The notes under the pieces were generated by a model. The model saw only the letters and a list, made by a program, of their open reading frames with translations, ran no database searches and had not been told where the DNA came from. DNA of 64,000 nt from Candidatus Woesearchaeota archaeon (lineage in GTDB: Archaea > Nanobdellota > Nanobdellia > Woesearchaeales > 0-14-0-80-44-23): contig JAPLZQ010000103.1 of the NCBI GenBank assembly GCA_026394965.1, forward strand, positions 13,028 through 77,027, written 5' to 3'. This document shows, piece after piece, positions 34,018 through 49,226 of the stretch; within the stretch, counting starts at the first letter, position 1, and each line of letters begins with the position of its first letter. A program made the translations under genes and the position numbers.

Positions 34018-34084
34018 AATTTCCTAATAATAATAAAAAAAATTTATAAAGCAGCAAGAAAATAAATTTATAAAGTTTAACGAA

Positions 34085-34531
34085 TTGTACAAAGATATGA
34101 GAAGTTTCAACAACTTGTTTAAGAAAAAAGTTATTGAAGAAAATAAAAACAACAGAGTTATTCCTTCTGGTATCACTTTTAAAATTATAGTAAATCCGTC
34201 GTTAAGTGAGGATCATCAAAAAGCGTTAAGATATGTTATCATCAAAAATTCTGGGTTAGATCAATATTTTAAAAATATTGATGTGACTTTTTATGATAGC
34301 TATAATGGGAATAATGTGAGCAATGATAAACTTAAGGGAAAACAAATGCTGGTTAAAGTTTTTTGCCCAGAACCCATTGTGAGTATAGAAAAAGATAAAG
34401 AAGACGAGTTCTATAAACAGCTAAAATCTAAAGTTACAGAATATATAATAAAAGCTATTCAAAAAAACACTGAAAAAAAATATAAAGCTAATTTAGAAGA
34501 ATTTCTATTTACATACAGATTAGAATTTTAA
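34085..34531 (+). CDS. hypothetical protein encoded in an AT-rich, compositionally atypical segment
   Basis: 148 aa. Strong AAT/TTA/AAA codon bias unlike the flanking genes, and no recognisable motif. Confidence 0.35.
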   Translation: MYKDMRSFNNLFKKKVIEENKNNRVIPSGITFKIIVNPSLSEDHQKALRYVIIKNSGLDQYFKNIDVTFYDSYNGNNVSNDKLKGKQMLVKVFCPEPIVSIEKDKEDEFYKQLKSKVTEYIIKAIQKNTEKKYKANLEEFLFTYRLEF

Positions 34532-34753
34532 ATACTTTATTTCTTAAAAAGTAATCTATAAAATAAAGAGGAGATAAACTAAATTTATTTTTCTGCGAGC
34601 TTGACCAATTCTGCGTAGAATCCCATTGAAGAGAAATACACTGCTGAAATAACAAAGCTGAGCGCGAAGTAAACAAATGAAAGATCAGAGCCTTCATCTG
34701 TTTTTAAAACAGAGGGGTTTTTGAAACACTTTACTCCGCAATTGGCGCATGCA

Positions 34754-34840
34754 GTGATTGAATCAATGTTGGGGCATGCAGCAATTGAATCAATGCTTTT
34801 TGGCATCTGGCCCTTCACTTCAGAAATTGAATCAATGCTT
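34754..34840. repeat. tandem array of three about 27 bp degenerate repeats, each centred on the palindrome ATTGAATCAAT
   Basis: Palindrome cores at 34757-34767, 34784-34794 and 34826-34836. The longer units GCATGCAG(T/C)(G/A)ATTGAATCAATG(C)TT(TTT)GG are repeated. They overlap weak ORFs on both strands (34585-34977 minus, 34721-34924 plus). Confidence 0.5.
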
Positions 34841-35325
34841 TTTGACGCACTGCCTTCCTGCCAAGAAATTCCAAGAGTCATAATTGAAGCAGCAGTGCGT
34901 GGAGAGATTTCATACTGCGGGTAAGTGTTCAGCCAGTCATGCTCTCTGTTTTCATTTCCCCATCTCATTTTTATCACTCGAAAAATTCTTTTAGATTTTT
35001 TCAGATACCCTAACTCCCTCGCTCTGATTTTGCAGGCATAGCCAGATTAAATAGAGAAGGATATTTTAATTTATCGGGAAAAAATAAAAAACGGCTTGGA
35101 AAAGAGAGAATTATCATAAAAATCCGCATAAACTTCAAAGTCCAAAGAATTACTGCATGGACTCGTTTTGAAAATATCCTGCCAATTTAAAAGCTATGAG
35201 GGATTAGTTACCATTATTTGATAGTGAAAAAACCGAAATATTTATAAACCCTTTCTGAATTGTTATCACTGCCAGTCAATAATAAACCGGCAATAATCTC
35301 ATTTAAAAGGATTGGGGGTAATAAC

Positions 35326-36837
35326 ATGTTAGGCATCGGACAGAAGGCGCAGGCAAGTAATTACCAGCAGCAGATAAGGGATATGGTTTCTTACATAAAT
35401 CAGCATTTCATAGCAGAGGCTCCAAAAGACATATACCTCAATGAATCGCAGGAGGGTATAGGCGGGCACACAAAAGGAGCCCTTCTTAAAGAGGCAATAG
35501 AGAGCGCAAAAAGCAAAAAGCCGATTTCAGAAAATATCCTTCCCATCACAACCACAATGCTTGCATTAAACTCTTGCATCGGAAACAACACCCTCATTTC
35601 AGGAGATGTTGGGACAGGAAAGACAAGGCTCGCAAGCGTAATAGGCTCAATGGTTTACCAAATCCCAGTTGAGATTTTTGACTGGAGAAAAATTGTCGGA
35701 AGCCCGGGAGCAACAGTCAATGACATTTATGCAACTCACGACATCGCTGAACTAAACAAGGGAATAGACATGGCATTTCTTTATCTCCCATTCCATATGC
35801 CTTACCTTATCATAGATGAACTCAACAGGTTCTCTGAACTTGAGCAGAACAGGATAAGAGAGGGCGTTGCAAATGATGTGTGGAACTATGCAAACCACTC
35901 ATGGAAGATAGACAAACAGGTTGTTGTATCAGCAATGAACCCCGATGTTTACGGAGGCACATTCTCCCTCAATGAAAATCTTGTGGACAACTACTCAATT
36001 CTCCTTTGGCCGCCAACATACAATCCAATAGCGCACCAGCATCTTGTAGAGCACGCCGATGAGAAGATAAAAGAGGGGCTGGGGCTTGAAGACAAGGTGG
36101 GCGAGTTTTTTGAATTCTACAAATCCCACAAGAACGATGCAAAAGCAATCAAAGATAAGATATCAGATCTTCAGCAGGCAACTGTCCAGGAATATGAAAG
36201 AAGGAAAATCCCGATAATCAAGAACGGATTTGTGTCAGAGATAAAAAAAGAGATTTCGGAAATAAGGTTTGCAGACGAGCCTCTTCTCTTCTTCTATTCA
36301 ACGCTTTCTGAGATATCCCAAAGCACAAAGTTCGGGGAAAACCGGTTTGAGGATCCAAGGTCAGATGACGAGCATGACAAGAGATACCTCTCAACAAAAG
36401 TGCTTAGGGGGCTTGCAGGAAGGTTCATGAAGGACTGGGAAATGATGTCAAAGGGGCTTGCATGGTACCTTGGAAGGGACAGAGTTACAGTTGAGGATGT
36501 GAAAACAGCATTTGTATTCACATCAGCAGCAAGGATAAACCCTGAAGAAAGATTCAAGCAGAAGGTATGGAACAGCCAAAGAAGCCTCCCCATAAGGCAC
36601 GCTATTGCAAAGCAGGTTATTGATGACTCATTCAAAAACTACACTGATTACACAAGCGCAGACAAGTCATTTGAGCATGTCAGAAAGGCAATACTCATGA
36701 TAACTGAGAATGAGCTTAATGCAGAAACAATCTCTGAAGCAAGAAAAGACCTGGAAATGAGCGACCATCCTGTTGCAAGGACAATTGAAGAAGCTCTCCT
36801 TTGCATGCAATATGAAAGCATGCAGAACAGAAAGTAA
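35326..36837 (+). CDS. MoxR-family AAA+ ATPase with a C-terminal extension of about 250 aa
   Basis: Walker A GDVGTGKT, Walker B LIIDELNRF (the MoxR-type DE(I/L)NR), sensor-1 VVSAMNP, and an ENLVDNYS segment in the position of the MoxR LDRF box. The likely start is the ATG at 35326, preceded by GGGGG. The ORF track starts at 35260. Confidence 0.7.
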   Translation: MLGIGQKAQASNYQQQIRDMVSYINQHFIAEAPKDIYLNESQEGIGGHTKGALLKEAIESAKSKKPISENILPITTTMLALNSCIGNNTLISGDVGTGKTRLASVIGSMVYQIPVEIFDWRKIVGSPGATVNDIYATHDIAELNKGIDMAFLYLPFHMPYLIIDELNRFSELEQNRIREGVANDVWNYANHSWKIDKQVVVSAMNPDVYGGTFSLNENLVDNYSILLWPPTYNPIAHQHLVEHADEKIKEGLGLEDKVGEFFEFYKSHKNDAKAIKDKISDLQQATVQEYERRKIPIIKNGFVSEIKKEISEIRFADEPLLFFYSTLSEISQSTKFGENRFEDPRSDDEHDKRYLSTKVLRGLAGRFMKDWEMMSKGLAWYLGRDRVTVEDVKTAFVFTSAARINPEERFKQKVWNSQRSLPIRHAIAKQVIDDSFKNYTDYTSADKSFEHVRKAILMITENELNAETISEARKDLEMSDHPVARTIEEALLCMQYESMQNRK

Positions 36838-36866
36838 GCGAATCACTTGGCTTGAGAATAAAAAAA

Positions 36867-38171
36867 ATGACTCTTTTTGACATGTCTGGAATAGAGAAAA
36901 GGGAAACAAAGGAAAACTCTCACGGATTAGAGGCGCTCCTCAATGCAGGAGACGCATTCTTCAATGAATTCGGGAGGTTATCCTGGAAAGAAATGATTGA
37001 CTTAATGAAAAAAAACAGAAATTATGCCAAAGAGTTCATAAAAGAAAAACTTAATGGGACAGAGTATTCTACAGAAGACATAGAGGACTATGTTATCATA
37101 AAAAGCGCAGAAGGAACAAGGAATTCAAGCTCCCTAAATTCAAATGTTCTTGGTGAATACTCGGGAAAAATTCTCAGCCTTCTCACAGAGGAAAATTCAA
37201 GTAAAGGAAAAAAAACAGTGATAAAAATTGACGGAAAAGGCGGGACTTTTGACCGTCTTTTTTACGGCGCAGAATTCTTTGATGAAGTATACATCTCAAA
37301 CATGAATGGAGAGGGAATATGCTCATCAATGGCGAACGGCAACATCCTTGCCCTAAACAACTGCAACGGGGGTAATACTGCAACATTCATCGGCGCAGGA
37401 AGCAACGGAGGCGTTAAGGCAGCAATACTGAACAATGCAAATAGCACGCACAATCTATTTTACGATGCTGCGTTTATAAACGGGCACATAGGGCTTGCCA
37501 TGCTCAACAACTCAACAGACAGTTACCATATAGAAATGGCCCTTTCTCTGATATACCCGGGAATAGAGCGGCTTGTAATACGAAACAAATTCAATCCCGA
37601 AAAATTCCAATTTGAAGATTTGCCTGTTGAGGATGGAAATGAAAATAAAGATTTCAAATTTTATGCTGATGAATATGCATTTGGAATAGAAAACGATTCA
37701 GAGATAATGGTTGCAAACAACGTCAGAAATAAAAGAGAATATGGCGGGCATCTATTCGGAAGGATGATTGAGCCAAACACTGAACTGCAGGAATTCCTGA
37801 AAAAAAACGGGATTGACAGAATGGCTGAGCTTTCAGACAAAATGGTGGATGCGGACTTAGACACTATTCAGGAAAATGCCAGAATGATTTACCATATTCA
37901 CAACGAAACTGCAACAAAAGAAATGCTCGAAGGAAGAGACAGATATTATCATACAATAAGACTTTTTGAAGAAATTGTTCCTGATGTTCTTGAAGAAATC
38001 CCCAGAAAACCAAAAGATGATTCAAATAATTATCCAAATCAGGAAAAAATCTATGAAAACGCCGGAGAAAAGATACAGAAGAAGGCAAGCAGGTGGATTA
38101 AAAACACATGGTATGACATAAGAGAAATATTTTTCATAAATCAGATAATGGACAAGATAAGGGGCAGATGA
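36867..38171 (+). CDS. paralog 1 of tandem GIEKREKKE-motif / Gly-Asn periodic-repeat family
   Basis: N-terminal MTLFDMSGIEKRETKE. Core KKTVIKIDGKGGTFDRLFYGAEFFDEVYISNMNGEGICSSMANGNILALNNCNGGNTATFIGAGSNGGVKAAILNNANS, then the C-terminal helix ELQEFLKKNGIDRMAELSDKMVDADLDTIQENARMIYHIHNE. The ORF track starts at a TTG at 36852. Confidence 0.6.
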   Translation: MTLFDMSGIEKRETKENSHGLEALLNAGDAFFNEFGRLSWKEMIDLMKKNRNYAKEFIKEKLNGTEYSTEDIEDYVIIKSAEGTRNSSSLNSNVLGEYSGKILSLLTEENSSKGKKTVIKIDGKGGTFDRLFYGAEFFDEVYISNMNGEGICSSMANGNILALNNCNGGNTATFIGAGSNGGVKAAILNNANSTHNLFYDAAFINGHIGLAMLNNSTDSYHIEMALSLIYPGIERLVIRNKFNPEKFQFEDLPVEDGNENKDFKFYADEYAFGIENDSEIMVANNVRNKREYGGHLFGRMIEPNTELQEFLKKNGIDRMAELSDKMVDADLDTIQENARMIYHIHNETATKEMLEGRDRYYHTIRLFEEIVPDVLEEIPRKPKDDSNNYPNQEKIYENAGEKIQKKASRWIKNTWYDIREIFFINQIMDKIRGR

Positions 38172-38186
38172 AATTCGGTGAAAAAA

Positions 38187-39566
38187 ATGGCATTCAGCGA
38201 TCTTACTGGAATAGAGAAAAGGGAGAAAAAGGAAATAATTTCTTCTGGATTAGAGATGCTTCTTCAGGCAGGAGACGCATTTCTAAACAAATTTTCCAGA
38301 CTATCAATTGAGGAACATGTGGATTTGGAAATGAACAACCACAGTTATGCTGAAGATTTTATAAAAGAAAAACTGAGAGGAGTTGAGTATTGCGCTGCAG
38401 ACATAGTGGACTATGTTATCATAAAAAGCAGGGAAAACGCACAGGAGCGCGGATATCTCGAGGAAGAAGATCTTGCCAGATATTCAGGGATAATTCTAAG
38501 CAGGCTTACAGAGAAAAATTCGAGGAAAGGAAAAAAAACAGTAATAAAAATTGACGGAAAAAATGGTACCTTTAACAATCTTTTTCGTGGAGCAGAATTC
38601 TTTGATGAGATATACATCTCCAACATGAACGGGGGATGGCTGTGCTCAGCAATGGCAAACGGCAATATTCTCGTGCTAAACAACTGCAGCAGCAACGGCG
38701 CTGCAGCATTCATAGGAATGGGAATGAACGGCGGAGTCAAGACAGCAATATTGAACAATGTAACCGAACCTTCATATAAATTAAGACAGGCATTTGGATC
38801 AGTCGATAAATCCGATAAATTTTTTAATATTGCAAATTTAGAGGGGCATGTCGGGCTTGCTATGATCAACAATTCGGCAAACGATGAGGTCATGCAGTCT
38901 TATGATATTGAAACGTTGCATTATCATTCAATCACACATTATTCAATAGCAGAACAGCTGGTAATACGCAACTTCCCTTATCAAAAAAACCCATTTAAAG
39001 AATGGCATCTTAAGAGAATAGGCGACTCTGCAAACTGCGGATTGTATTCTGAAAGCGGGGCGGTATTATTTTCTTACAACATATCCCCCTTACCAGTAAT
39101 CGACTGCTCGCAGGTAATTATTGAAAATAATTTCTATAATTTAGGATTATATACTAACCATCAATTCGGAGAAACAACAGACCCAACTGCTGAAATCCAG
39201 GAATTCCTGAGAAAAAACGGGATGGACAGAATCATTGCGCTTGCAGATGAAATGACTGAAGCAGACTTAGACACAATACAGAAAAACGCCAGACAGATTT
39301 ACCGGATTCACGAAGAAACCGCAACACCAAAAATGCTCAAAGGAAGAGAAAACTACTGTTTCTCAATGAGACGCTCCAAAGAAAATATTCCCGATGTTCT
39401 CGAAGAATTCAGTTCAAACATTCAGAATGGTTCAGATTCAGGAAAAATCTACGAAAGCGCTGAAGAAAAAATACAAAAGAAAAGAGACAGATGGATTAAA
39501 AACGCTCAGTATGACATAAAAAAGATGTCTTTCATAAAATGGGCAATAGACAAAATAAGAAGATAA
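38187..39566 (+). CDS. paralog 2 of tandem GIEKREKKE-motif family
   Basis: MAFSDLTGIEKREKKE..., the same core (KKTVIKIDGKNGTFNNLFRGAEFFDEIYISNMNGGWLCSAMANGNILVLNNCSSNGAAAFIGMGMNGGVKTAILNN), and C-terminal EIQEFLRKNGMDRIIALADEMTEADLDTIQKNARQIYRIHEE. About 45% identical to paralog 1. Confidence 0.6.
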   Translation: MAFSDLTGIEKREKKEIISSGLEMLLQAGDAFLNKFSRLSIEEHVDLEMNNHSYAEDFIKEKLRGVEYCAADIVDYVIIKSRENAQERGYLEEEDLARYSGIILSRLTEKNSRKGKKTVIKIDGKNGTFNNLFRGAEFFDEIYISNMNGGWLCSAMANGNILVLNNCSSNGAAAFIGMGMNGGVKTAILNNVTEPSYKLRQAFGSVDKSDKFFNIANLEGHVGLAMINNSANDEVMQSYDIETLHYHSITHYSIAEQLVIRNFPYQKNPFKEWHLKRIGDSANCGLYSESGAVLFSYNISPLPVIDCSQVIIENNFYNLGLYTNHQFGETTDPTAEIQEFLRKNGMDRIIALADEMTEADLDTIQKNARQIYRIHEETATPKMLKGRENYCFSMRRSKENIPDVLEEFSSNIQNGSDSGKIYESAEEKIQKKRDRWIKNAQYDIKKMSFIKWAIDKIRR

Positions 39567-39581
39567 AATTCGGTGAAAAAA

Positions 39582-41453
39582 ATGGCAGAAGACAAAAAGC
39601 AGGGCGCGGAAGACAAAAAGCTTGAGGAAATCATAAAGAAATGCTTTGAGGAGACAAAGGACCGGTATCTCAGACCTCCGATAAGCGGACCTCTGATAGT
39701 TGACTCTGAAATTGAAATGAACGGCTTGGGAACAGCATTTCTGAACTTCCTTGACTTATCCATTGGAATAAATGCCCCTTTTCTTAAAAAAATGGCAGGA
39801 TATGCCAATGGTGATATTGAAAAGATGGCAAAGGGAATTTTCACCCACGAAATCGGGCATTATATGTTTTTTCCCCAGAATGTAAGCCTTTCACTTTACC
39901 TCTCATATGAGGCAGAGGAGAATTTCAAGGAAAACAGCGCAATAATATACGCCCTTTTCGCTGACTATGTCAACAATTCTCTCATCTATTACCAGCAGGT
40001 TGAGGCAGAGAGTTTGAAAGGGCTACTTGCAAGCTCATATCTCGACAAAAAAAACAGGGCAACAAACAGCGCAATGGCCTTAAGCTACGGAAAAAGGATG
40101 AAAGAGGAATTCTCCGTTGACCTAAGCGGCTTTGAAGAGGAAACCATGAAAAAAATAATCAAGGCAGCAGACGAGATTGATTCAGTAACAGTTAGCATGA
40201 GCAGGAACTACAACCTGCAGTATTCCCAACTCCGAAGATTCGGAGAGGCAATACTTCCCCTTCTTAATATTGACAGGCAAAAAATGAAGGAGAATCAGAA
40301 GAATAACTGCGACAAAAATTGCCAAAACAACGGGGGGCAGGGTGAAAACCCTTGCAATTGCCCTTCTGGCGGGGGCTCAAGAATAATAACCAAGGAAGAT
40401 TTTGACAAGCTTCCCGCTGAAGATAAGCAGAAGATAAAGCAGGCAATAAGGGAAATGATAAAGCACATGGACAAGAAGAAATATGAAAAAATAAAGGAGC
40501 ATTTCCTTGGAAAAGAGAGCGCTAAGAAAGACAGGGCTCCTGGAATCGGAACAGGCATAGAAAATGTGGAATCTGCTGAAGATAAAACAACTGAGTACTA
40601 CAAGGAGCTTGCAGCAGAATACGGGATATTCATAAGGCCCAAGAAAACAAGAACCTTATCCTCAACAAAGCAGGTTTTCGGAAAAGAGGACTTCAAGATG
40701 GACAGCCCGCCGATAGGGATAGACACAAGATACTCCGGCGGAAAAATACTTCCGGGGCTTACAAAGAAAATCAGGATAGAGTCAATACCTTACCTAAAAA
40801 ACTCACAGTCGCTCCCTTCTCTCATAATATACAAGGACGCATCAGGAAGCATGCCTAATCCCCAGCAAGAGACATGCTATGCAACCCTTGCCGGAACAAT
40901 ATTCATAATGAGCTATTTTCGGAGCGGATGCAATGTGGGAGTTTCCCTGTTTGACTCGGAAATGACAGACATATTCAGAAGCGAGGATGAGGATGAGCTG
41001 ATAAAGATGATTTGCAGCTACAAGGGCGGCGGAACATCAATTGATTTGGACAGGTTAAAAAAAGACATAGCAGAATCAAAATCAGAGATTCCAATAGACC
41101 TGAAGAAAATAAATGAGGAAGAAATCAGGAAAAACCCGCTTTTCAGGAAATACCTGAACAAAAACGGAAGGATAAGCCTTCAGGAGCTCACAAGCCAGAG
41201 CTATGTTGACCTGATGATAATAACAGACGGCGGAATCATGAATGTTGATGAGCTGATTGACTTCATGAAAAACAACGAGAAATACCGCCCTACAATAATA
41301 CACACCGGCACATTCCAGCTAGATATACCGGGATATGACCAGCAGCACACCTGCTCTTATGGGGGAATAACCGTGTTCAAGGCGGACTCAAAAGAGGACC
41401 TTGTGAGAATATCGCAGGACATAATTGAAAAGAACCTTATTTCAGGCAACTAA
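39582..41453 (+). CDS. von Willebrand factor A (vWA) domain protein with complete MIDAS, fused to an N-terminal HExxH zincin-like region and a Cys-rich linker
   Basis: C-terminal vWA with MIDAS residues all present: DASGS in IIYKDASGSM, the Thr in KGGGTS, and the Asp in LMIITDGG. The N-terminal region contains FTHEIGHYMFF (HExxH). The linker is CDKNCQNNGGQGENPCNCPSGGG. The start ATG at 39582 shares the upstream 22 bp AAATTCGGTGAAAAAAATGGCA with paralog 2. Confidence 0.65.
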   Translation: MAEDKKQGAEDKKLEEIIKKCFEETKDRYLRPPISGPLIVDSEIEMNGLGTAFLNFLDLSIGINAPFLKKMAGYANGDIEKMAKGIFTHEIGHYMFFPQNVSLSLYLSYEAEENFKENSAIIYALFADYVNNSLIYYQQVEAESLKGLLASSYLDKKNRATNSAMALSYGKRMKEEFSVDLSGFEEETMKKIIKAADEIDSVTVSMSRNYNLQYSQLRRFGEAILPLLNIDRQKMKENQKNNCDKNCQNNGGQGENPCNCPSGGGSRIITKEDFDKLPAEDKQKIKQAIREMIKHMDKKKYEKIKEHFLGKESAKKDRAPGIGTGIENVESAEDKTTEYYKELAAEYGIFIRPKKTRTLSSTKQVFGKEDFKMDSPPIGIDTRYSGGKILPGLTKKIRIESIPYLKNSQSLPSLIIYKDASGSMPNPQQETCYATLAGTIFIMSYFRSGCNVGVSLFDSEMTDIFRSEDEDELIKMICSYKGGGTSIDLDRLKKDIAESKSEIPIDLKKINEEEIRKNPLFRKYLNKNGRISLQELTSQSYVDLMIITDGGIMNVDELIDFMKNNEKYRPTIIHTGTFQLDIPGYDQQHTCSYGGITVFKADSKEDLVRISQDIIEKNLISGN

Positions 41454-41482
41454 AAGCAATAGGGGTGATGGGGAAGTGAAAA

Positions 41483-42394
41483 ATGCCAATAGAAGAACTA
41501 TCAAAAGTGGAGAAGAGGGAAACAATAGAGCACAAAAGCACCGCAGAGGAATTCATAAAAAAATGCGGGGAAGCAACAGAAGAGATAAGCGCATTATGCG
41601 CCCAGAAGAAAAACCGCGGTTTTCAAATTGACACAATACGCGACGTATACACCCCGATGGACCGGCTTCTTGAAAAAAGCCTTTCAGAGCTCGACTATTC
41701 GGCAGCGGACATTGAAACATTCATAAGTTCAGAGTACCATCGAGAAATTGCAGACGCAAAAAGATTGCCGCTGGGAGTCTGCACCAGAATAACACTGGAA
41801 ACCCTCACAAAAAAAAACAGGGCAAAAGGAGAAAAAACAGTAATAAAAATTGACGGCAGCTGGAATGAATTTAACTACTTATTTTTCGGCATACAAAACT
41901 TTGACGAGATATACCTCTCAAACATGAAAGGAGAGAGAATACTCTCAGTATCTGATGGAGGCAAGTGCGGAACAGCTGTCCTAAACAATATTGAAGGAAG
42001 CGGTTTGTGCTCATACCTTGATTACAACATTGGTTCACTTGATAATCTAATCTGCAATATGTCTAAGACGTTTTATTTTAAGGATATGCACCGGTCTAAA
42101 CCAAGAAATATTGGCTTTGCCCTGTTAAGCGATTGCATGGTAAATTCTGATGATCAATTCAACTGCTGCTATTTCAGAGAAATTTTGGGAGAAAAAGAAC
42201 CAATTAAGGAAGACAAGGAAAAATATGAGATTATCCTTGAGCTTGCAGCAAAGATGACTGACTCACCAATAGATGAAATAGAAAACCTTAGCCGGCAGAT
42301 AATACAAATCTATCGCTCAGATAAAGAGGATGAGAATATCATAGAGAAAACCAGCAAAACAGGATATGCCCATTTCAAATGGCTTAAGAGATGA
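41483..42394 (+). CDS. paralog 3 of tandem GIEKREKKE-motif family (short, divergent)
   Basis: MPIEELSKVEKRETIEHKS..., core KTVIKIDGSWNEFNYLFFGIQNFDEIYLSNMKGERILSVSDGGKCGTAVLNNIEGSG. The repeat region is truncated. 303 aa. Confidence 0.55.
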   Translation: MPIEELSKVEKRETIEHKSTAEEFIKKCGEATEEISALCAQKKNRGFQIDTIRDVYTPMDRLLEKSLSELDYSAADIETFISSEYHREIADAKRLPLGVCTRITLETLTKKNRAKGEKTVIKIDGSWNEFNYLFFGIQNFDEIYLSNMKGERILSVSDGGKCGTAVLNNIEGSGLCSYLDYNIGSLDNLICNMSKTFYFKDMHRSKPRNIGFALLSDCMVNSDDQFNCCYFREILGEKEPIKEDKEKYEIILELAAKMTDSPIDEIENLSRQIIQIYRSDKEDENIIEKTSKTGYAHFKWLKR

Positions 42395-42429
42395 AAAAAA
42401 TCAAAAAGAAGTGATAAGGAAAACAAAAA

Positions 42430-43323
42430 ATGCCGCTAAACGAGCTTACCGGAATAGAGAAAAGGAATAAAAAGGAAAAGGGAGAGGACAGGACTGAATA
42501 TTTCACAAGAATCAGCAACGGAATAGTCAAAAGCATGCTCAAAGAGTTCGTGAGAATGAGAAAAAGAATCCTTGTCAAGTTCATTGAGGAAACAGATGAG
42601 GAAAGAAAGGAATTTGTCAAAAACGCTATTGGAAGCTTTGAATACAATGAGAGGGATTTGGAAGGGTTGATACAGGCAAAAATTGAAGATGAGAACAAAT
42701 CGCCAATGCTCGGTTACTATACAGGAATTCTTCTGGAAATGCTTACTGAAAGGAACAGAAAAAAGGGAATTGAGACAACTGTCAGGATTGACGGATGCGG
42801 AAGGGACTTTCCCTACCTTTTCATGGGAGCAAGAAACTTTGACAATGTCTACATCTCCAACATAACCGGAGATAAAATACTTTCAAATTCGCTTGATGGA
42901 GGAAGGGGAAAGACAGCGGTTATAAGCGGGCTTAAGGGAGATTCTGCAGCATACTGGATGGCGCGCAAGGGAATGCTTGACCTGCTTGTGATAAATGATT
43001 CTATCGGCGAATTCACTGCAGCAGGAATCGCTGAAGGAGGCTGCATAAAAAGGGTGGTTCTAAGGAACATTACAAGCGACACTGGTTTAACACTTGAATT
43101 CGCGAAAATGAACAACGGCAAAATCCCAGAACTGATTTATGATGCAAAACCGGGAATGTTATCCGGCATAGGCGATTATATCACTATGAAATTCGGGCGC
43201 GTTCCAAGAAGGAGGGGCTCCCTTGAATGCGCAGCCAAGATGAGCGGCGCATCAGTTTATGACATAGAGAAATACGCAAATGAGATAAACAGCCTGTTCA
43301 GAGAAAAAAATGCCACTAAATGA
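42430..43323 (+). CDS. paralog 4 of tandem GIEKREKKE-motif family
   Basis: MPLNELTGIEKRNKKEKGE..., core ETTVRIDGCGRDFPYLFMGARNFDNVYISNITGDKILSNSLDGGRGKTAVISGLKGDSAAYW... 297 aa. Confidence 0.55.
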   Translation: MPLNELTGIEKRNKKEKGEDRTEYFTRISNGIVKSMLKEFVRMRKRILVKFIEETDEERKEFVKNAIGSFEYNERDLEGLIQAKIEDENKSPMLGYYTGILLEMLTERNRKKGIETTVRIDGCGRDFPYLFMGARNFDNVYISNITGDKILSNSLDGGRGKTAVISGLKGDSAAYWMARKGMLDLLVINDSIGEFTAAGIAEGGCIKRVVLRNITSDTGLTLEFAKMNNGKIPELIYDAKPGMLSGIGDYITMKFGRVPRRRGSLECAAKMSGASVYDIEKYANEINSLFREKNATK

Positions 43324-44428
43324 GCTTATTGGAATAGAGAAACGGGAGAAAAATGATAACCCAGAGAGCCAACTTGAAAAGCTGCTTGAAATCGGGGAGG
43401 ATGTTGTAAAAAAATTCGGGAAAAGCGAGCTTGCGGACAGAATTACATATGACAACCGGTTTGAGCCGATTTCAAAATTAAGGGAGAAGATAGAAATCTA
43501 CTGCATGAGAAGCATTGAAAACATTGAATACACAGAAAAGGACATAGAGTCATTTGTGAACGGCAGATTGGGCGTCTCACGGGATACTGGTGAGCAGGTA
43601 ACCATAGGAACTTATTCTGGAATCATTTTGGACATATTAACCATGAAAAACCGGGAAAAGGCAAAAGGAACAAGAATAGCGATTGATGGGAAAGGCGAAG
43701 AGTTTGACTATCTGTTTTCCTGTGCGAAAAACTTTGATGAGGTTTATGTCTCAAACATAAAAGGAGACTACATCTGCACATATGCGGGGGCAGAAGGATA
43801 TGGAAAGATGATAGTCCTGAATGATATTAAAGGCGACTACATTGGAAAATCAATTGCTGCATTGCGCGGAAATGTTGAGATTGCAGTTATAAATCGCGCA
43901 GAAGGATTAGGAACCGGGCATGAAATCGCCTCATACCACGGGAATGCTGGATTAATTATTGTAAACAATGCGATTGGAAGGGAAACATTGATGGACGTGG
44001 CTGTTGAAGGCGGAAGCATAGGGCTCGCTTTGATAAACAAGGCAATTGGCGATTATACTGCCTGGTGCGCAGCTTATGATTCAGGGAGCATTGGGGACCT
44101 CGTAATAACAAACTCAAAAACCAAATCAGAAAAAGGATTTGATATTGATGTAACCAGGATAAAAAACATCCTCCTGAAAATGAATAAATTCAACTTCTCA
44201 AACAAAACTGGCAAAGGAATGCTTATTGGAAACAATGAAGATATGGAAAAGAGTTTCAATGAAGATTACCGAATAAATGAATTATCAGATGCTGTTAAAA
44301 AAATCGTAAAGAAAAAAGAAATTGAAGGGATTATAAAACAGGCAGGAAAGATACAGTCAATATATGAAACCATAAAAGAGAGAGTTGAAGGAGACCTGGC
44401 ATGGATAAAGGAGCATTCGGAGATTTAG
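43310..44428 (+). CDS. paralog 5 of tandem GIEKREKKE-motif family
   Basis: MPLNELIGIEKREKNDNPE. Its first 36 nt are nearly identical to the paralog 4 start. Core TRIAIDGKGEEFDYLFSCAKNFDEVYVSNIKGDYICTYAGAEGYGKMIVLNDIKGDYIGKSIAALRGNVEIAVINRAEGLGTGHEIASYHGNAGLIIVNNAIGRETLMDVAVEGGSIGLALINKAIGDYTAW. 372 aa. Overlaps the paralog 4 stop. Confidence 0.6.
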   Translation: MPLNELIGIEKREKNDNPESQLEKLLEIGEDVVKKFGKSELADRITYDNRFEPISKLREKIEIYCMRSIENIEYTEKDIESFVNGRLGVSRDTGEQVTIGTYSGIILDILTMKNREKAKGTRIAIDGKGEEFDYLFSCAKNFDEVYVSNIKGDYICTYAGAEGYGKMIVLNDIKGDYIGKSIAALRGNVEIAVINRAEGLGTGHEIASYHGNAGLIIVNNAIGRETLMDVAVEGGSIGLALINKAIGDYTAWCAAYDSGSIGDLVITNSKTKSEKGFDIDVTRIKNILLKMNKFNFSNKTGKGMLIGNNEDMEKSFNEDYRINELSDAVKKIVKKKEIEGIIKQAGKIQSIYETIKERVEGDLAWIKEHSEI

Positions 44429-45321
44429 ACGCAATAGAGAAGCGGGAGAAGAAGGAATACCCGCACACACTTGAAGCGCTGATAGAGGCAGAAGAGAAAA
44501 TAAAACCAAAAATCCTGGGGAGATACCCGTCCTATCCAAGAGAGACAGACAAGTATCTTGATGTGCTTTCCCTTGCTGGAGAAGCCCTCAAAAAAACTGA
44601 TTACACGGAAAAAGACATAGAAAACTTTGTGCTTTCCCAATCAGGAAGCGGGGAAAATGAAAGCGAGGAAATGTTTATTGGGATTTACGCGGGAGCAATT
44701 GTGGAAAACCTTGGAAGGAGAAAAGGCAGGAAAAAAACAATAATTGCAATTGACGGAAAGGGAAGGAAATTCAACTACCTCTTCCACTGCATAAGGAATT
44801 TCGGGGAGATATACCTCTCAAACTTCAACGGCACATACATATGCCACAATGCAGCAAGCTACGGAAAGGGCGAAATCCTTGTGCTCAACAGAGTTAAAGG
44901 AAATGGAAACGGCGGATATGCCGGCTCAAAGGGAAAAATAGGGCTTGCAATACTTAATGAAACAGGCGCTGTAAATGAATTCACAATTCTCAGGCAGATG
45001 ATAAATTTCGGGTACAATGAAAAATTCAACATAGAACGCTTTGTGATAAAGGAAAAAAATGTCAAGCTTAGCAAAATGGCGCAGGTTTTCAAAAGGGAAA
45101 TTGAAGTTCCTGAACTGCTTGAGGTTTACAAACTGTCAGAAGAAACAATAAACGGAAACAAACCAGGCAGTTTATACGAAACTACAAGAGTCCAGAAAAT
45201 CAAAATCAAGAGTAAGGAAAAAAAAGAGATAAACAGTTTAACAGAAGAGATGGAAAGCGCAGAAATCGGAGAAATGGCAGATATTGCAAAACGCATAAGG
45301 GAGCTGTGCTATGAACAATAG
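44401..45321 (+). CDS. paralog 6 of tandem GIEKREKKE-motif family
   Basis: MDKGAFGDLDAIEKREKKEYPHTLEALIEAEE..., core KKTIIAIDGKGRKFNYLFHCIRNFGEIYLSNFNGTYICHNAASYGKGEILVLNRVKGNGNGGYAGSKGKIGLAILNETG. 306 aa. Confidence 0.55.
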   Translation: MDKGAFGDLDAIEKREKKEYPHTLEALIEAEEKIKPKILGRYPSYPRETDKYLDVLSLAGEALKKTDYTEKDIENFVLSQSGSGENESEEMFIGIYAGAIVENLGRRKGRKKTIIAIDGKGRKFNYLFHCIRNFGEIYLSNFNGTYICHNAASYGKGEILVLNRVKGNGNGGYAGSKGKIGLAILNETGAVNEFTILRQMINFGYNEKFNIERFVIKEKNVKLSKMAQVFKREIEVPELLEVYKLSEETINGNKPGSLYETTRVQKIKIKSKEKKEINSLTEEMESAEIGEMADIAKRIRELCYEQ

Positions 45322-46417
45322 AAAAACGCCTTTTGATGAAATGTCAGGAATAGAGAAAAGGGAGAAGAAGGAATATTCGCACACACTTGAAGCCCTAATT
45401 GAAGAATCTGGACATTCTGTAAAGAGGATGCTTTCAATGATGATAAAAGCAATGGCTTGGAATGACCTTAGCGGAATGTACATTCACGCATTTCATGAAG
45501 CATCAGAAGAACTTGAAGGGGTTGAATACAACGAAAGAGACCTGTCTGACTTCATAACAGCAAACAGTGGAATTCCAATGGAAAGCGATGAAGAATGCGC
45601 TCTTGGAGTATACTCTGGGATACTGCTTGACCTGCTTACAAGAAGGAGAAGAAAAGAGGGGAAGAAGTCAGTTGTAAAGATTGAAGGCGCAGGAAAGGAA
45701 TTCCATTATCTCTTTTATTATGCAAAAAACTTTGATGAGGTTTACATATCAAACATTGAAGGCGACAAAATCTGCTCAAGGATGGGAAGCCACAGCGGAA
45801 GCGGAAATTTCATAGTGCTTAACAATGTGAATGGAAATTTCATCGCAGACACAGTAGGATACAGCAGCGGAAAAGTGAATATGGTTGTGATAAACAATTC
45901 TCGCGGAATAATGGCTGGAAACAGCATTGCTGAACGCGGAAGCGCTGGATTAATAGTCCTGAACAGCATAAATGCTGCAGGAGATATAGGATGCGCAATT
46001 GCAAAAGAGGGGGAAGCCGGAACAGTCATATTAAACAATCTTAACGGAGACAGGATAGGAGATTACTGCGGAAGCGCTAAAGGAAAAATCGGGAATATTG
46101 CATACCTGTCAATAAAAGCAAAAGAATCAGTCGGCGAATTTGTGCCTGATTATGAGAGCGAAATCGGGAAGATGATAATACTGGACAGCCATGTTAAAAA
46201 TCGCAATGTTGGGGCGGAATTCAGCGGATTCGGCAGATCTGAAATAATAACTGAACAGGAAAATGAAAAAGCAGAAAGGGCGCTGGAAGAAACAGGGATT
46301 AAAGAAATAATCCTGCTTGCAGATGAAATGGGAAAATTTGGCGCTGAAAGATATGAGGAATACGCTCATAAGATTTATTGCTCATACAAAATGGCAGGTG
46401 GAAAATATGCCTTTTGA
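45311..46417 (+). CDS. paralog 7 of tandem GIEKREKKE-motif family
   Basis: ...FDEMSGIEKREKKEYSHTLEALIEESG, where the N-terminus is near-identical to paralog 6 at the nucleotide level. Core KKSVVKIEGAGKEFHYLFYYAKNFDEVYISNIEGDKICSRMGSHSGSGNFIVLNNVNGNFIADTVGYSSGKVNMVVINNSRGIMAGNSIAERGSAGLIVLNSINAAGDIGCAIAKEGEAGTVILNNLNGDRIGDYCGSAKGKIGNIAYL. 368 aa. Confidence 0.6.
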   Translation: MNNRKTPFDEMSGIEKREKKEYSHTLEALIEESGHSVKRMLSMMIKAMAWNDLSGMYIHAFHEASEELEGVEYNERDLSDFITANSGIPMESDEECALGVYSGILLDLLTRRRRKEGKKSVVKIEGAGKEFHYLFYYAKNFDEVYISNIEGDKICSRMGSHSGSGNFIVLNNVNGNFIADTVGYSSGKVNMVVINNSRGIMAGNSIAERGSAGLIVLNSINAAGDIGCAIAKEGEAGTVILNNLNGDRIGDYCGSAKGKIGNIAYLSIKAKESVGEFVPDYESEIGKMIILDSHVKNRNVGAEFSGFGRSEIITEQENEKAERALEETGIKEIILLADEMGKFGAERYEEYAHKIYCSYKMAGGKYAF

Positions 46418-47480
46418 TGAGCTTTCGGGAATAGAGCTGAGAGAAAAAGCAGGGCAGGATAAAAATGCTCTTGAAAAAATCCTTGAAATCTGCGATTATC
46501 TTTGCAGAAACACTTCAGAGGTATACCGCTACCTTTTCGACACCATGAACTCTGATTCAGAATTCTATTCACATGTGCGCTCCTTCGCTCTCTCAAAAAC
46601 CAGGAATATTGATTTCAATGAAAAAGACATTTGTGACTTCATTATTGCAAAATCCTATGAAAAGCAGGAAAAGGAAGGGGTAATAGGGCTTTTTTCAGGA
46701 GTTCTCCTTGACATACTTACAGAAAGAAACAGGAAGCAAAAAAAGAAGACGATAATCAAGATTGACGGCAAAGGCGCAAAATTCAGCTACCTGTTCTACG
46801 GCGCAAGAAACTTTGACGAGATATACCTTTCAAACTTCAACGGCAGATACATCTGCGCAAAGATAGGGAGCGAAGGGAGAGGCGGGATAGCTGCGCTTTC
46901 CAGAATTGACGGAAGCTACACAGGAGAATCGGCAGGGGCATTCTCTGGAGGAATAGATGCGCTGATTGTAAACTCGGCAACTGACAATGAGCTCTGCTCA
47001 AAAATTGGTTTTTCCGGGGGAAAAGCAGGATTAGTGCTGATAAGCAATTCAAAAGCATTTCTTGCAGGAAGCTCAATTGCAAGAGATGGCTCTGCAGGCA
47101 TGATTGTCCTTAACCAGATAATTTCAGAGCACATTGGCGATTACATAGGAGAAGGAGGGCATGTTAAAAAGCTTGCAATGAACAGCCTGTCGGGCTCCTA
47201 TGTTGGCAGAAACATCGGGACAAATAATGGAGAGGTAAGCGAGATAGCGCTCAGGGATATAAAAGCGAGCTATGTTTTTTCATCAGCAAATTTTGAAAGG
47301 ACAAGGAGCCTCATCAGGTACAATGATAATGAAGCTGAAATCTATTTCAGGAAAAACCGCATTGACAGAATCATCTCGCTTTCAGAGGATATTGATTTGG
47401 CAGATGATATTGATGAACTGGAAAGGATATCAAAAAAGATTTATCGGGAATACAGAAAAGGGATGAAAAATGGGGCTTGA
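46407..47480 (+). CDS. paralog 8 of tandem GIEKREKKE-motif family
   Basis: MPFDELSGIELREKAGQDK..., core KKTIIKIDGKGAKFSYLFYGARNFDEIYLSNFNGRYICAKIGSEGRGGIAALSRIDGSYTGESAGAFSGGIDALIVNSATDNELCSKIGFSGGKAGLVLISNSKAFLAGSSIARDGSAGMIVLNQIISEHIGDYIGEGGHVKKLAMNSLSGSYVGRNIG. The ORF track begins upstream at 46317. Confidence 0.6.
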   Translation: MPFDELSGIELREKAGQDKNALEKILEICDYLCRNTSEVYRYLFDTMNSDSEFYSHVRSFALSKTRNIDFNEKDICDFIIAKSYEKQEKEGVIGLFSGVLLDILTERNRKQKKKTIIKIDGKGAKFSYLFYGARNFDEIYLSNFNGRYICAKIGSEGRGGIAALSRIDGSYTGESAGAFSGGIDALIVNSATDNELCSKIGFSGGKAGLVLISNSKAFLAGSSIARDGSAGMIVLNQIISEHIGDYIGEGGHVKKLAMNSLSGSYVGRNIGTNNGEVSEIALRDIKASYVFSSANFERTRSLIRYNDNEAEIYFRKNRIDRIISLSEDIDLADDIDELERISKKIYREYRKGMKNGA

Positions 47481-48549
47481 AGAGCTTTCGGAAATAGAAA
47501 AGAGAAAACCCAGCATCGCAAATAAAAGCGGGCTTGATGCGGTAATATCTGGAATGGAAGAATGCGTGAGCAGGGTAAAGACAATGATGATTCTTCCTTT
47601 TCCACTCTATTCCATACAAAAGGTCTATGAGATAGCAGAGAAAAGGCTGGAATCAGCAGATTATTCTGAAGATGAGATAATTGACTGCATAATTGCAGGC
47701 AGGAAATATGAAGATTATGGGAACAAGGCAATAGCAGGCGCATACACAGGAGCTCTCCTCAGCATCCTTACTGAAAGAAACAGTAAAAAAGGCAGGAAAA
47801 CAATAATGTATGTTGATGAAAAATGCAGCGGGTTTGACTATCTGTTCTACAATGCAAGAAGCTTTGATGAGGTTTACCTGAATAATTTCAACGGCGATTA
47901 TGCATGCTATGGAATGGAAAACGGAAGAAGGGCAGTTGTTAACAATTCGCATGGAGACACAATGTTCTGGGACATTGCATCTGGAAAAATTGAAAAAAGA
48001 GACAATGCGCATCCAAATGCGGAAATGATACTTATTAACAATTACCAGCCAAATGTTTATTTCAATACTGAGATAGGCTCTTTTGCAGGAGCATACGGGG
48101 GCTCAATAGGGCTTTTCCTTGCAAACAGCTGCTGCAGCTGGCAGACAGGAAGGGACATTGCCTACAGCGAGGGCTTTGCAGACACGGTAATACTCAACAA
48201 GACAAAAGGGGATGAAATCGGGAATGGAATTGCATGCAACAGAGGAAGGGTGAATAATCTTCTCATAATCGGAGGAAGCCAGAATTTTGTAGGAAATGAC
48301 ATTGCTCAGGTAGGCGGCTCTGTCGGAAACCTTCTTGTGCAGGGAAAGAAAGGAAAGGTGATGTGCGGGGCTAACTTTTACCGGGTTGAAAGGCAGATAA
48401 GCAGGAGCAGGAACAAGAGAAGGTTCATGGAAAAAAGGGGAATACCAAAGATTCTTGCATTAGCCGAGCAGATGAAAACAGCTGGAAAAGATGAGATTAT
48501 CATGCTCTCTGAGCAAATCTGGCAGGAATACACAGAAAACAGAAAATGA
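47470..48549 (+). CDS. paralog 9 of tandem GIEKREKKE-motif family (most divergent)
   Basis: MGLEELSEIEKRKPSIANKS..., core RKTIMYVDEKCSGFDYLFYNARSFDEVYLNNFNGDYACYGMENGRRAVVNNSHGDT..., then Gly-rich repeats and C-terminal GIPKILALAEQMKTAGKDEIIMLSEQIWQEY. 359 aa. Confidence 0.55.
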   Translation: MGLEELSEIEKRKPSIANKSGLDAVISGMEECVSRVKTMMILPFPLYSIQKVYEIAEKRLESADYSEDEIIDCIIAGRKYEDYGNKAIAGAYTGALLSILTERNSKKGRKTIMYVDEKCSGFDYLFYNARSFDEVYLNNFNGDYACYGMENGRRAVVNNSHGDTMFWDIASGKIEKRDNAHPNAEMILINNYQPNVYFNTEIGSFAGAYGGSIGLFLANSCCSWQTGRDIAYSEGFADTVILNKTKGDEIGNGIACNRGRVNNLLIIGGSQNFVGNDIAQVGGSVGNLLVQGKKGKVMCGANFYRVERQISRSRNKRRFMEKRGIPKILALAEQMKTAGKDEIIMLSEQIWQEYTENRK

Positions 48550-48611
48550 ATTTTTATTAAAATCAATTATTTAAAAACATATTTATATTGCAACACTCAT
48601 TTCCTGTGATT

Positions 48612-49226
48612 ATGATTAAAGCAGTTGCTTTTGACCTGGGAGGAGTGTTGTTCTCATGCGGAACACCTATTGCAGTTGAAAGAATCTCTAAAAAGCACGG
48701 CTATGAAAAGAATCTCATAAGCGACCTGCTATCCTCTGAAAAGAGCATAAAGTTAAGAAAGGGGAAGATGAGCGATAATGCATTTTGGAAATGGGCTGAA
48801 AAAACCCTGCCTGCGGGATACAATGTTGCGACAATCAAGAGGGAATGGTATGACTGCTACATCATAGACGGAGAGGTATTTCAGCTGATAAAAGAGCTCT
48901 TCATGAACAAAAGAATAAATCTTCTTGTTTTCTCTGGAAACATACGCTCAAGGGTGCTTTATCTTAACAAGAAATACGGCTTCCGGAAGTACTTTGACCA
49001 TGAGGTATACTCATTTGACCACGGCTGCATGAAGGGCAGCAAAGAGTTTGTGAAGAAACTCATATCCGAGGCAGGATGCAAACCGCCTGAAATCCTTTAC
49101 ATTGATGATAATCCAATCCAGGCGAAGCCTGCTTCTATGATGGGAATAAACCTTCTCATATACAAAAAGGGAAAAATTGAAGAACTTAAGGAAGGGATAA
49201 AAAGATTCGGGATAGCGCTGAGATAA
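48612..49226 (+). CDS. HAD-superfamily hydrolase
   Basis: MIKAVAFDLGGVLF is HAD motif I (DxG/D). FSGN is motif II-like, and IDDNP with a downstream Lys gives motifs III/IV. The ORF track starts at 48588. Confidence 0.55.
   Translation: MIKAVAFDLGGVLFSCGTPIAVERISKKHGYEKNLISDLLSSEKSIKLRKGKMSDNAFWKWAEKTLPAGYNVATIKREWYDCYIIDGEVFQLIKELFMNKRINLLVFSGNIRSRVLYLNKKYGFRKYFDHEVYSFDHGCMKGSKEFVKKLISEAGCKPPEILYIDDNPIQAKPASMMGINLLIYKKGKIEELKEGIKRFGIALR

Follow-up and report, generated by a model that had tools for sequence, protein, structure and literature searches.

A tandem family of predicted beta-helix paralogs linked to a MoxR-like ATPase and a putative HExxH/vWA-like protein in DPANN archaea

Ternary MoxR-vWA systems encode a MoxR gene, a vWA gene and a diversifying third component in each operon, with a metallopeptidase domain sometimes fused to the vWA component (PMC7159879), and the logic proposed for them is peptide capture by the vWA component followed by MoxR-driven remodelling of the protein so bound (PMC7159879; Kaur, Burroughs, Iyer, Aravind 2020, eLife). 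The third component of these systems is a VMAP, iSTAND, FtsH or beta-propeller protein, both partners carry a folded effector-associated domain (EAD), and the hosts are multicellular bacteria (PMC7159879). The classical MoxR/vWA chaperone pairs CbbQ-CbbO, NorQ-NorD, CoxD-CoxE, RavA-ViaA and BchI-BchD (Mg-chelatase) each join an AAA_3-type ATPase to an adjoining MIDAS-motif protein, the adaptor mediating recognition of a single defined client enzyme. Proteins that combine DUF2201_N (a putative metallopeptidase, PF13203) with DUF2201 (PF09967), in which an HExxH domain is followed by a vWA-like domain, are also frequent MoxR neighbours.

The locus described here lies in a 64-kb stretch of archaeal DNA, hereafter the window, and likewise brings an AAA gene, the gene for a large protein that we call BIG, and a paralog family into one neighbourhood, with a vWA call made from motifs only. 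It differs from the ternary systems in that its third component is a beta-helix family whose tandem copies number from 1 to at least 27, in that a short linear peptide missing from the hub stands where those systems have a folded EAD on both partners, and in that its hosts are small-genome DPANN archaea; PADLOC returned no match for the window system. Recognition of clients by an adaptor, as we put forward below, would be shared with the classical pairs; however, the putative clients here form a large, diverging paralog array, and BIG adds an HExxH domain and has no sequence-level match to a vWA profile. BIG has a domain order like that of the DUF2201_N/DUF2201 proteins but matches neither Pfam model even at E <= 10.

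A MoxR-like ATPase, BIG and a paralog array in one cluster

The first-pass annotation described nine tandem paralogs. Their number is correct, whereas their contiguity is not, as the BIG gene divides them into groups of two and seven (Table 1). We placed the start of P8 at the ATG at 46407, although the longest open reading frame begins at 46317; this choice yields an 11-nt overlap, as at the P6/P7 and P8/P9 junctions, within a range of 11-28 nt for coupled paralog genes (14 nt for P4/P5). The reported length range of 297-462 aa is borne out for the open reading frames, but repeat number explains it only in part: the span from the core to the C-terminal helix motif, occupied by the solenoid, does vary from 131 to 230 aa among paralogs, and P1 and P2 also carry a C-terminal extension of ~80 aa. 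These two proteins end otherwise than in the closing "...IY" helix that had been assigned to every paralog.

Table 1. Features of the cluster; the nine paralogs P1-P9 span 36867-48549 of the window
Feature	Coordinates	Strand	Length (aa)	Family HMM E	N-terminus	Remarks
MoxR-like AAA+ ATPase	35260..36837	+	525			length as ORF; opens cluster
P1 (NTV63_04790)	36867..38171	+	434	4.5e-94	MTLFDMSGIEKRETKE	
P2 (NTV63_04795)	38187..39566	+	459	9.7e-89	MAFSDLTGIEKREKKE	
BIG	39582..41453	+	623			putative HExxH domain, linker, vWA-like domain
P3	41483..42394	+	303	3.4e-72	MPIEELSKVEKRETIE	short solenoid
P4	42430..43323	+	297	1.1e-76	MPLNELTGIEKRNKKE	
P5	43310..44428	+	372	1.8e-101		
P6	44401..45321	+	306	1.3e-65	MDKGAFGDLDAIEKREKKE	
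P7 (NTV63_04825)	45311..46417	+	368			structure model built on P7
P8	46407..47480	+	357	4e-104	MPFDELSGIELREK	N-terminus from chosen ATG
P9 (NTV63_04835)	47470..48549	+	359	4.7e-92	MGLEELSEIEKRKPS	
HAD hydrolase	48588-49226					unrelated; directly after P9, the final cluster gene

The ATPase retains intact Walker A (GDVGTGKT) and Walker B (YLIIDELN) motifs while scoring below the Pfam cut-offs for AAA_3 (PF07726; 19.4 bits against 27) and AAA_lid_2 (22.2 against 22.7). Its orthologs are 45-52% identical and score 26.5 (L006), 23.3 (L012) and 31.8 bits (L010) against AAA_3, only the last of these exceeding the cut-off; L010 also keeps both Walker motifs. The gene comes first in the arrays of L006, L009 and L010, and the window copy is 95% identical to that of the sister strain L001.

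BIG consists of an N-terminal HExxH domain, a low-complexity linker and a C-terminal vWA-like domain with MIDAS motifs, and we assign it from these motifs as a putative zincin-like plus vWA-like protein. Across 11 BIG orthologs there is no departure from HExGH (H89-E90-x-G92-H93) or from the MIDAS motifs KD[AS]SGS, YKGGGT and ITDGG, and the nearly invariant Asp128 is the sole candidate for a third zinc ligand. Profile comparisons were weak throughout: a search against PDB profiles aligned the vWA domain of CLCA1 with the MIDAS region at E = 1.2, a deeper BIG profile found no match in PDB, and hhalign aligned the MIDAS segment with E. coli ViaA at E = 0.15 and a probability of 0.4%. Pfam yielded no vWA-type match for BIG at E <= 10 or for the 11 orthologs at E <= 1, and no peptidase or DUF2201_N match for any of them. 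A single-sequence AF2 model of BIG had a pLDDT of 32.7, too low for its fold to be read.

The paralog family has no match in Pfam, NCBIfam or PADLOC and comprises 343 clusters at 50% identity, whose named sources are mainly DPANN archaea. All loci recovered through either the family or BIG carry same-strand paralogs beside the BIG gene, the AAA gene or both, and the three are linked in every locus with sufficient sequence, with one AAA and one BIG gene per array. With P for a paralog, the order is AAA-2P-BIG-7P in the window, AAA-11P-BIG-4P in L006+L003, AAA-BIG followed by at least 21P, plus 5 more, in L009+L007(+L008), at least 9P followed by BIG-P in L016, and AAA-P-BIG in L010; further linked loci are L013-15, L017, L018 and L023-25. 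Paralogs are monophyletic within each genome and their copy number ranges from 1 to at least 27, a lineage-specific expansion.

Architecture of the paralogs

The core KT.IKIDG..F..LF....F.E.Y.SN..G reported for all nine proteins is indeed conserved in every paralog, with F133, L136, F137, F143, Y147, N150 and G153 invariant. The periodic repeat said to follow it is real by BLOSUM autocorrelation, peaking at a lag of 23-25 residues (z = 4.6-6.6 in P1, P5, P7 and P9, the highest at lag 24 in P5; z = 4.8 in P8) and again, as harmonics, at 46-48, but is weak in P3 and P6. Modelling predicted a three-sheet right-handed solenoid of ~22-25 residues per coil, and the architecture of a paralog runs from a disordered N-terminal peptide through a helical domain and a right-handed beta-helix of variable length to C-terminal helices, so that helical domains cap the solenoid at both ends in the P7 model. 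Conserved residues sit where the helical domain meets the first coil and at structural Gly, Asn and hydrophobic positions of the repeat.

Foldseek gave no significant match for the paralog model; beta-helices of this class include PfbA, UpaB and tailspikes. Searches with Pfam Beta_helix, PbH1, NosD and GH28 found nothing at E <= 1 among the nine paralogs or at E <= 0.01 among 36 members of the family. The proteins are set apart from known right-handed beta-helix and pectin-lyase-like (CASH, PbH1) proteins by an identity of 5-14%, by a predicted cytosolic location, by a unique N-terminal helical domain, by a C-terminal helical domain and by the conserved junction motif LTERN..GK.T..IDG.G..F.YLF.

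A shared N-terminal peptide and its proposed role

The pattern [FLIM]xx[LM]x[GKEA][IV]E[KL]R, searched in a six-frame translation of the whole window, has exactly nine matches, all at paralog N-termini, and is not found in the AAA or BIG protein. E15 and R17 are invariant in the alignment of the nine paralogs, and residues 1-23 are disordered in the P7 model (pLDDT about 40). Across the family, 110 of 151 representatives carry the motif [FL]xxLxG[IM]..[RK]; inside one genome, motif identity is 0.50-0.82 as against 0.18-0.25 for the protein bodies. The variant of the peptide differs by genome and is near-uniform within each: ..ELsGIEKRE in the window (W), F.DL.GIe.ARDVQAR (J), RLPGLDGMLPG..VKGREK (M) and ALKKLKGIKPKGVK (K). 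The suggestion that the peptide is a handle for the MoxR/vWA pair is strengthened, though unproven, by its being disordered, family-wide, genome-specific and encoded in hub-linked genes.

The reading that we favour, tentatively and at slightly less than even chances, is that the nine paralogs constitute the expanded third part of an undescribed DPANN MoxR/BIG three-part system, serving its hub as soluble clients. BIG, a single-copy adaptor, might grip the N-terminal peptide at its vWA/MIDAS site or in the cleft of the HExxH domain, and the cleft might cleave the captured peptide; the K-type motif lacks an acidic residue, which makes a universal MIDAS-carboxylate contact unlikely. The MoxR ring would then spend ATP to remodel or release its clients, as has been proposed of other MoxR-vWA pairs (PMC7159879). 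The beta-helix would be the diversified ligand-binding part and the array a germline repertoire of specificities sharing one hub, most likely put to use in host or virus interaction.

Alternative explanations and sequence divergence

The paralogs could instead be variable surface adhesins, with the N-terminal peptide serving as a pro-peptide or sorting signal cut by the HExxH domain of BIG, MoxR as the motor for unfolding or assembly and the mature beta-helix proteins exported or assembled, letting an episymbiont attach to its hosts. The invariance of HExGH among BIG orthologs, the position of a disordered peptide at the extreme N-terminus, the prevalence of such beta-helices in adhesins and tailspikes such as those named above, and the tendency of surface proteins to form expanded, fast-evolving arrays are all consistent with this. 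However, none of the 11 cluster proteins has a signal peptide or signal-like segment, a transmembrane segment or an anchor, no secretion component conserved within the cluster was found, and the third zinc ligand was not found; we regard this alternative as unlikely, while giving it appreciable weight.

A more specific, and rather doubtful, extension of the favoured client reading is that an intracellular repertoire of beta-helix "receptors" on one hub is an archaeal analogue of NLR/LRR arrays for virus or host recognition. Such a repertoire would comprise 9 to at least 27, possibly ~46, copies, taking up as much as ~5% of a genome of ~1 Mb, and in each lineage the handle would co-evolve with the hub.

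The first-pass annotation had inferred strong diversification of the repeat region, which survives only in the weak sense of a fast nonsynonymous rate. In comparison with the L001 counterparts, dS and dN are 0.52 and 0.021 for the AAA gene and 0.57 and 0.176 for P1, so that P1 evolves ~8x faster than the neighbouring ATPase at nonsynonymous sites at equal dS. Omega is nevertheless 0.31 and no sliding window exceeds 1, and relaxed constraint accounts for the high rate no less well than positive selection. Among six assemblies, the J-type array differs by 0-2 SNPs in 19 kb, indicating that nothing is actively hypervariable, and variation concentrated in the variable region between these close populations was not found. 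The minimal L010 system, with one short paralog that has almost no solenoid, is surrounded by housekeeping genes, a setting as compatible with a housekeeping role as with one in conflict.

That minimal member also argues against the paralogs being CASH/pectin-lyase-like enzymes with diversified specificity for glycans or other polymers, for which MoxR/BIG would be a maturation chaperone, for example for metal insertion, on the model of NorQD, CoxDE and CbbQO. We consider this improbable given, in addition, the 5-14% identity to such enzymes, the lack of Beta_helix, PbH1 or glycosidase matches in Pfam at E <= 1 and the location of the conserved residues outside any beta-helix groove.

A separate question is whether the 5' ends stay similar through gene conversion, that is, through concerted evolution and not through selection on the peptide. 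The near-identical 5' strings cited for P4/P5 and P6/P7 are present (81% over 62 nt and 87% over 54 nt, respectively), but the nucleotide-level homogenisation read from them is not upheld, as the similarity is accounted for by amino-acid conservation plus codon bias. Where residues match among the paralogs of the window, the rate of same-codon use is 0.57 for the motif, 0.52 for the core and 0.46 for the remainder, a negligible excess, and the two cited pairs score 10/13 and 10/18, respectively, at or close to a baseline of ~0.5. Without excess synonymous identity, conversion or recent duplication of these pairs is unsupported. Nor are the bodies 30-45% identical, most being 25-31%; P1 and P2 are the only close pair and the only recent relatives among the nine (54% at the amino-acid level and 66-78% at the nucleotide level over the full gene). 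Here conversion or recombination does demonstrably occur: against the sister strain, P1/P2 are mosaics, and in P1 the first 22 informative sites follow L001 gene 2 and the rest gene 3. Conversion tracts exist between P1/P2-type genes, and in the J and M arrays the motif has a same-codon rate above that of the core (0.71 against 0.50 and 0.65 against 0.48, respectively), although this excess could also stem from constraints on RNA or on translation initiation at junctions where genes overlap. As the motif is kept across hundreds of distant family members, conversion has only a slim chance of being what preserves the peptide.

Slightly more remote still is a structural or cytoskeletal role of the paralogs, as beta-helix proteins of a bactofilin-like polymer or scaffold assembled under ATPase control. 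They are soluble beta-solenoids, and their translationally coupled genes, with overlaps of 11-28 nt, suggest co-production; however, the helical caps at both solenoid ends argue against end-to-end polymerisation, 9 to at least 27 copies at 25-31% identity are unlike known cytoskeletal families, and no Pfam match to bactofilin (DUF583) was found. A collapsed or chimeric repeat assembly as the source of the 5' similarity is refuted for practical purposes, since copies at 25-31% identity are too divergent to collapse and the architecture recurs in independent assemblies, with a syntenic locus in an independent JGI assembly and another array identical in six.

The paralog family would merit a Pfam entry of its own, and so would BIG. 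Under the favoured reading, the system would also provide a model for client recognition by a MoxR-vWA machine through a short linear peptide, of which nature offers four variants (W, J, M and K) that each come with their own cognate hub. Little of the biology of the tiny-genome DPANN archaea is understood, including how they deal with hosts and viruses. An unannotated family that combines hub linkage, independent expansion in separate lineages to dozens of tandem copies, an elevated nonsynonymous rate and a lineage-specific peptide is a strong candidate module for interaction or conflict in these organisms.

Cluster architecture and its protein products

The first-pass annotation had read nine tandem paralogs in the window (P1 to P9), and a family HMM run on the window matched exactly these nine genes and none besides, although the open reading frames place them in two blocks, of two and seven, within an 11-gene unit on one strand. 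The remaining two genes encode a MoxR-like AAA+ protein (AAA) and a protein with HExxH and vWA-like parts (BIG). The contig belongs to a Candidatus Woesearchaeota MAG, in which the paralogs span NCBI locus tags NTV63_04790 to 04835, every one a "hypothetical protein". Spacers of 15-35 nt separate the cluster genes, and from P4 to P9 neighbours overlap by 11-28 nt.

Positions and gene order of the cluster, its surroundings and related loci (P, paralog)
Feature	Sequence	Position	Strand	Remarks
Topoisomerase VI B and A	window	31103-34017		upstream of cluster
ORF without family match, then gap	window	34085-35259		ORF of 148 aa; gap of 728 nt up to AAA gene
AAA	window	35260-36837	+	525 aa
P1	window	36867-38171	+
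P2	window	38187-39566	+
BIG	window	39582-41453	+	623 aa
P3 to P9	window	41483-48549	+
Whole cluster	window	35260-48549	+	AAA-P1-P2-BIG-P3 to P9
GC minimum	window	34001-36000		0.354
Purine excess	window	30001-48000		on coding (+) strand across cluster
tRNA match (Rfam)	window	2316-2413	-	98 nt
Mosaic comparison	window / sister strain L001	36867-39566 / 1188-3808
Minimal locus	L010 (Nanoarchaeota MAG H51-bin114_1)	7890-11827		AAA-P-BIG
Array	L006+L003 (Woesearchaeote)			AAA-11P-BIG-4P
Array	GCA_964550525.1 (L012/L009/L007/L008)			AAA-BIG-at least 21P to contig end, plus 5 at start of another contig; 27 distinct copies
Array	L016			at least 9P-BIG-P
Gene run	Woesearchaeote HOK51 (JGI 3300072015 contig, 636 kb)	HOK51_07795 to HOK51_07920		verified members 25 locus tags apart

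The low-GC stretch formed by the 148-aa ORF and the gap may serve the cluster as promoter or regulatory region; sigma-70 promoter and terminator scans of the window were uninformative, the host being archaeal. The purine excess across the cluster is strong (GC skew up to 0.22, AT skew 0.22-0.35) and falls past about 50 kb, where strand usage changes. The tRNA match (48.2 bits) was not called by ARAGORN and may be an intron-containing archaeal tRNA.

Aligning the nine paralogs confirmed both the shared N-terminal peptide (E15 and R17 invariant) and the shared core KT.IKIDG..F..LF....F.E.Y.SN..G (F133, L136, F137, F143, Y147, N150 and G153 invariant) of the earlier reading, and revealed an invariant I346 in the C-terminal helix. 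A six-frame search of the 64 kb for the pattern [FLIM]xx[LM]x[GKEA][IV]E[KL]R gave nine matches, each at a paralog N-terminus. The proposed periodic repeat core proved significant when BLOSUM autocorrelation was compared with 300 shuffles, peaking at lag 23-25 (z 4.6-6.6 in P1, P5, P7 and P9; 4.8 in P8) with harmonics at 46-48, and was weak in P3 and P6. An AlphaFold2 model of P7 built on the paralog alignment (pLDDT 85.2, pTM 0.86) places strands every 23-25 residues over 121-291 with pLDDT mostly above 90, flanked by helices at 25-115 and three more at 315-361; the first 23 residues are disordered (pLDDT about 40). The core and the C-terminal helix motif are separated by 131-230 aa, or about 5-9 coil equivalents (span/24), so the earlier attribution of length variation to repeat number holds in part, while another part stems from an additional C-terminal extension of about 80 aa in P1 and P2. 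Bodies are 25-31% identical rather than the 30-45% first estimated, with the exception of P1/P2 at 54%. Searches against Pfam, NCBIfam, PADLOC and PDB sequence profiles matched the paralogs to no known family.

AAA proteins carry Walker A and B motifs, and their AAA_3 (MoxR) scores run from sub-threshold to passing (19.4-31.8 bits, cut-off 27). BIG had no match among PDB and Pfam profiles, and its single-sequence structure model reached a pLDDT of 33. Across 11 BIG orthologs, an HExGH near the N-terminus is invariant, as are KDxSGS, YKGGGT and TDGGI in the C-terminal half, which form a DxSxS...T...D MIDAS pattern within the usual vWA strand-helix context. The only alignments found, both weak, are to the CLCA1 vWA domain (E = 1.2) and to E. 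coli ViaA (hhalign E = 0.15), and they fall exactly on this MIDAS segment. Based on these invariant motifs and alignments we term BIG "HExxH + vWA-like", a likely but unproven assignment. The two parts are joined by a highly variable low-complexity linker rich in Gly, Gln, Glu and Lys (columns ~230-330 of the BIG ortholog alignment A5), whose length differs by about 100 residues among lineages.

Distribution of the family

A word-indexed homolog search returned nearly only the window's own proteins and one relative; it was an exhaustive HMM search that revealed the family. At E <= 1e-3 this search recovered 343 representatives of 50%-identity clusters, and 307 remained at E <= 1e-10; most are full length, and none carries a Pfam annotation among the matches listed. 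Profile searches of genome contigs gave no match with the paralog alignment and three genomes with BIG. Named members sampled among NCBI protein records were all Candidatus Woesearchaeota; BIG was found in genome records that bear the names Nanoarchaeota and Woesearchaeota, and in one TPA MAG recorded as "uncultured Methanosarcinales". All other named sources are DPANN; this last genome, GCA_964550525.1, is mislabelled, or else the family extends past DPANN.

Loci fetched through BIG alone had adjacent paralogs in 15 of 16 cases, the exception being one short contig. The single paralog of the minimal L010 locus (213 aa) keeps the N-terminal peptide, helical domain, core and C-terminal helices with the solenoid almost absent, and housekeeping genes flank the locus: one for a NOL1/NOP2/Sun-like methyltransferase and one resembling methionine aminopeptidase. 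At the other extreme, an unbroken run in HOK51 comprises about 46 same-strand genes of 214-473 aa without a Pfam match, of which two were verified as family; with its other genes as putative members, this may be the largest array, taking up roughly 50 kb of a small genome. Neither BIG nor the paralogs had relatives in viral contigs, and a viral origin is therefore not supported.

Recombination and divergence among copies

The first-pass annotation had allowed that an assembly artefact might lie behind the 5' similarity; this is excluded, together with ongoing hypermutation, since one array is the same in six assemblies (0-2 SNPs in 19 kb). The DNA likeness of 5' ends on which that annotation based nucleotide-level homogenisation (P4/P5 and P6/P7) is real, but matches what peptide conservation and codon bias lead one to expect. 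In the window, the same codon encodes a fraction 0.57 of identical residues in the motif, compared with 0.52 for the core and 0.46 for other positions; the pairs P4-P5 and P6-P7 score 10/13 and 10/18. Given these near-baseline rates and the conservation of the motif family-wide ([FL] 96%, L 86%, G 79%, I 88% and [RK] 85% in 110 aligned representatives), selection on the peptide, not conversion, explains the 5' similarity in the window. Elsewhere in the family a nucleotide-level effect is possible, because same-codon rates over the first ~17 codons per paralog exceed those of the core in the arrays of L006/L003 (0.71 vs 0.50) and L007-L009 (0.65 vs 0.48); this excess could reflect 5' conversion, or RNA-level or translational-coupling constraints at overlapping gene junctions.

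Conversion is documented instead in P1/P2, through comparison with L001, a JGI contig of a sister strain syntenic with the window. The AAA proteins of L001 and the window share 95% identity, but the two genes that follow in L001 are only 52% and 69% identical to P1. At informative sites P1 is a mosaic, its first 22 sites (5' ~80 codons) all agreeing with L001 gene 2 and the remainder with gene 3; the P2 5' end matches L001 gene 3, which in turn resembles P2 in tracts at its own 5' end and around codons 380-400. These mosaics document unequal exchange or gene conversion between neighbouring copies.

Nei-Gojobori estimates gave dS 0.52, dN 0.021 and omega 0.04 for the AAA gene, and dS 0.57, dN 0.176 and omega 0.31 for P1 against L001 gene 3. 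The strong diversification proposed earlier thus holds in a weak sense: nonsynonymous change in the paralog is about 8x that of the AAA gene at equal synonymous distance, but omega exceeded 1 in none of the 40-codon windows along P1.

The putative N-terminal handle and a candidate mechanism

Neighbour-joining, with distances near saturation and so indicative only, placed each genome's paralogs in their own clade (W, the window type, 11/11; M, from L007-L009, 27/27; J, from L006/L003, 16/17; K, a further genome-specific set, 9/10). Within genomes, bodies are 18-25% identical and the first ~16 residues 50-82%, and this peptide, or handle, differs among genomes: M[PA][LF]x[ED]LsGIEKRE in W, F.DL.GI[ED].ARDVQAR in J, RLPGLDGMLPG..VKGREK in M and ALKKLKGIKPKGVK in K, with hydrophobic-x-x-L-x-G-[IM] as the part conserved universally. 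A peptide that is disordered, terminal, genome-specific and uniform within genomes, on many divergent proteins beside single-copy partners, is what one would expect of a motif for docking or processing that co-evolves with one receptor. The K handle has no acidic residue; this speaks against a MIDAS-carboxylate contact in all variants and makes the HExxH cleft or another groove an equally good putative site.

Encapsulin cargo-targeting peptides carry the motif DLGIRK/GSLKG, which the handle loosely resembles; this identity was rejected, as a shell gene is conserved in no locus. An EAD-like homotypic adaptor was likewise rejected, the motif being absent from AAA and BIG proteins.

In MoxR-vWA systems, the vWA domain is proposed to capture a substrate peptide and MoxR to release the substrate in an altered state (PMC7159879). 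By analogy, BIG would act on the N-terminal peptides of the beta-helix proteins, binding and possibly cleaving them, and the AAA ATPase would remodel or release each protein so bound; specificity would reside in the surface of the beta-helix, whose length and sequence vary. None of the 11 cluster proteins has a transmembrane or signal-like segment, so the system is most simply taken as cytosolic. Lineage-specific expansion and fast evolution favour an interaction with hosts or viruses as its purpose; a housekeeping assembly task is kept open by the minimal version amid housekeeping genes and by omega below 1.

The nearest known counterparts are the MoxR-vWA ternary systems and classical MoxR/vWA activases, with which the core pair is held in common. 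The present system differs in its third component, a new family in tandem arrays, in a link made by a linear peptide and not by a folded adaptor domain common to the partners, and in its DPANN hosts. Our literature search (Woesearchaeota/DPANN, MoxR, beta-helix arrays) found no description of it. The AAA-BIG-paralog unit represents a robust, unannotated system of putative function that is directly testable.
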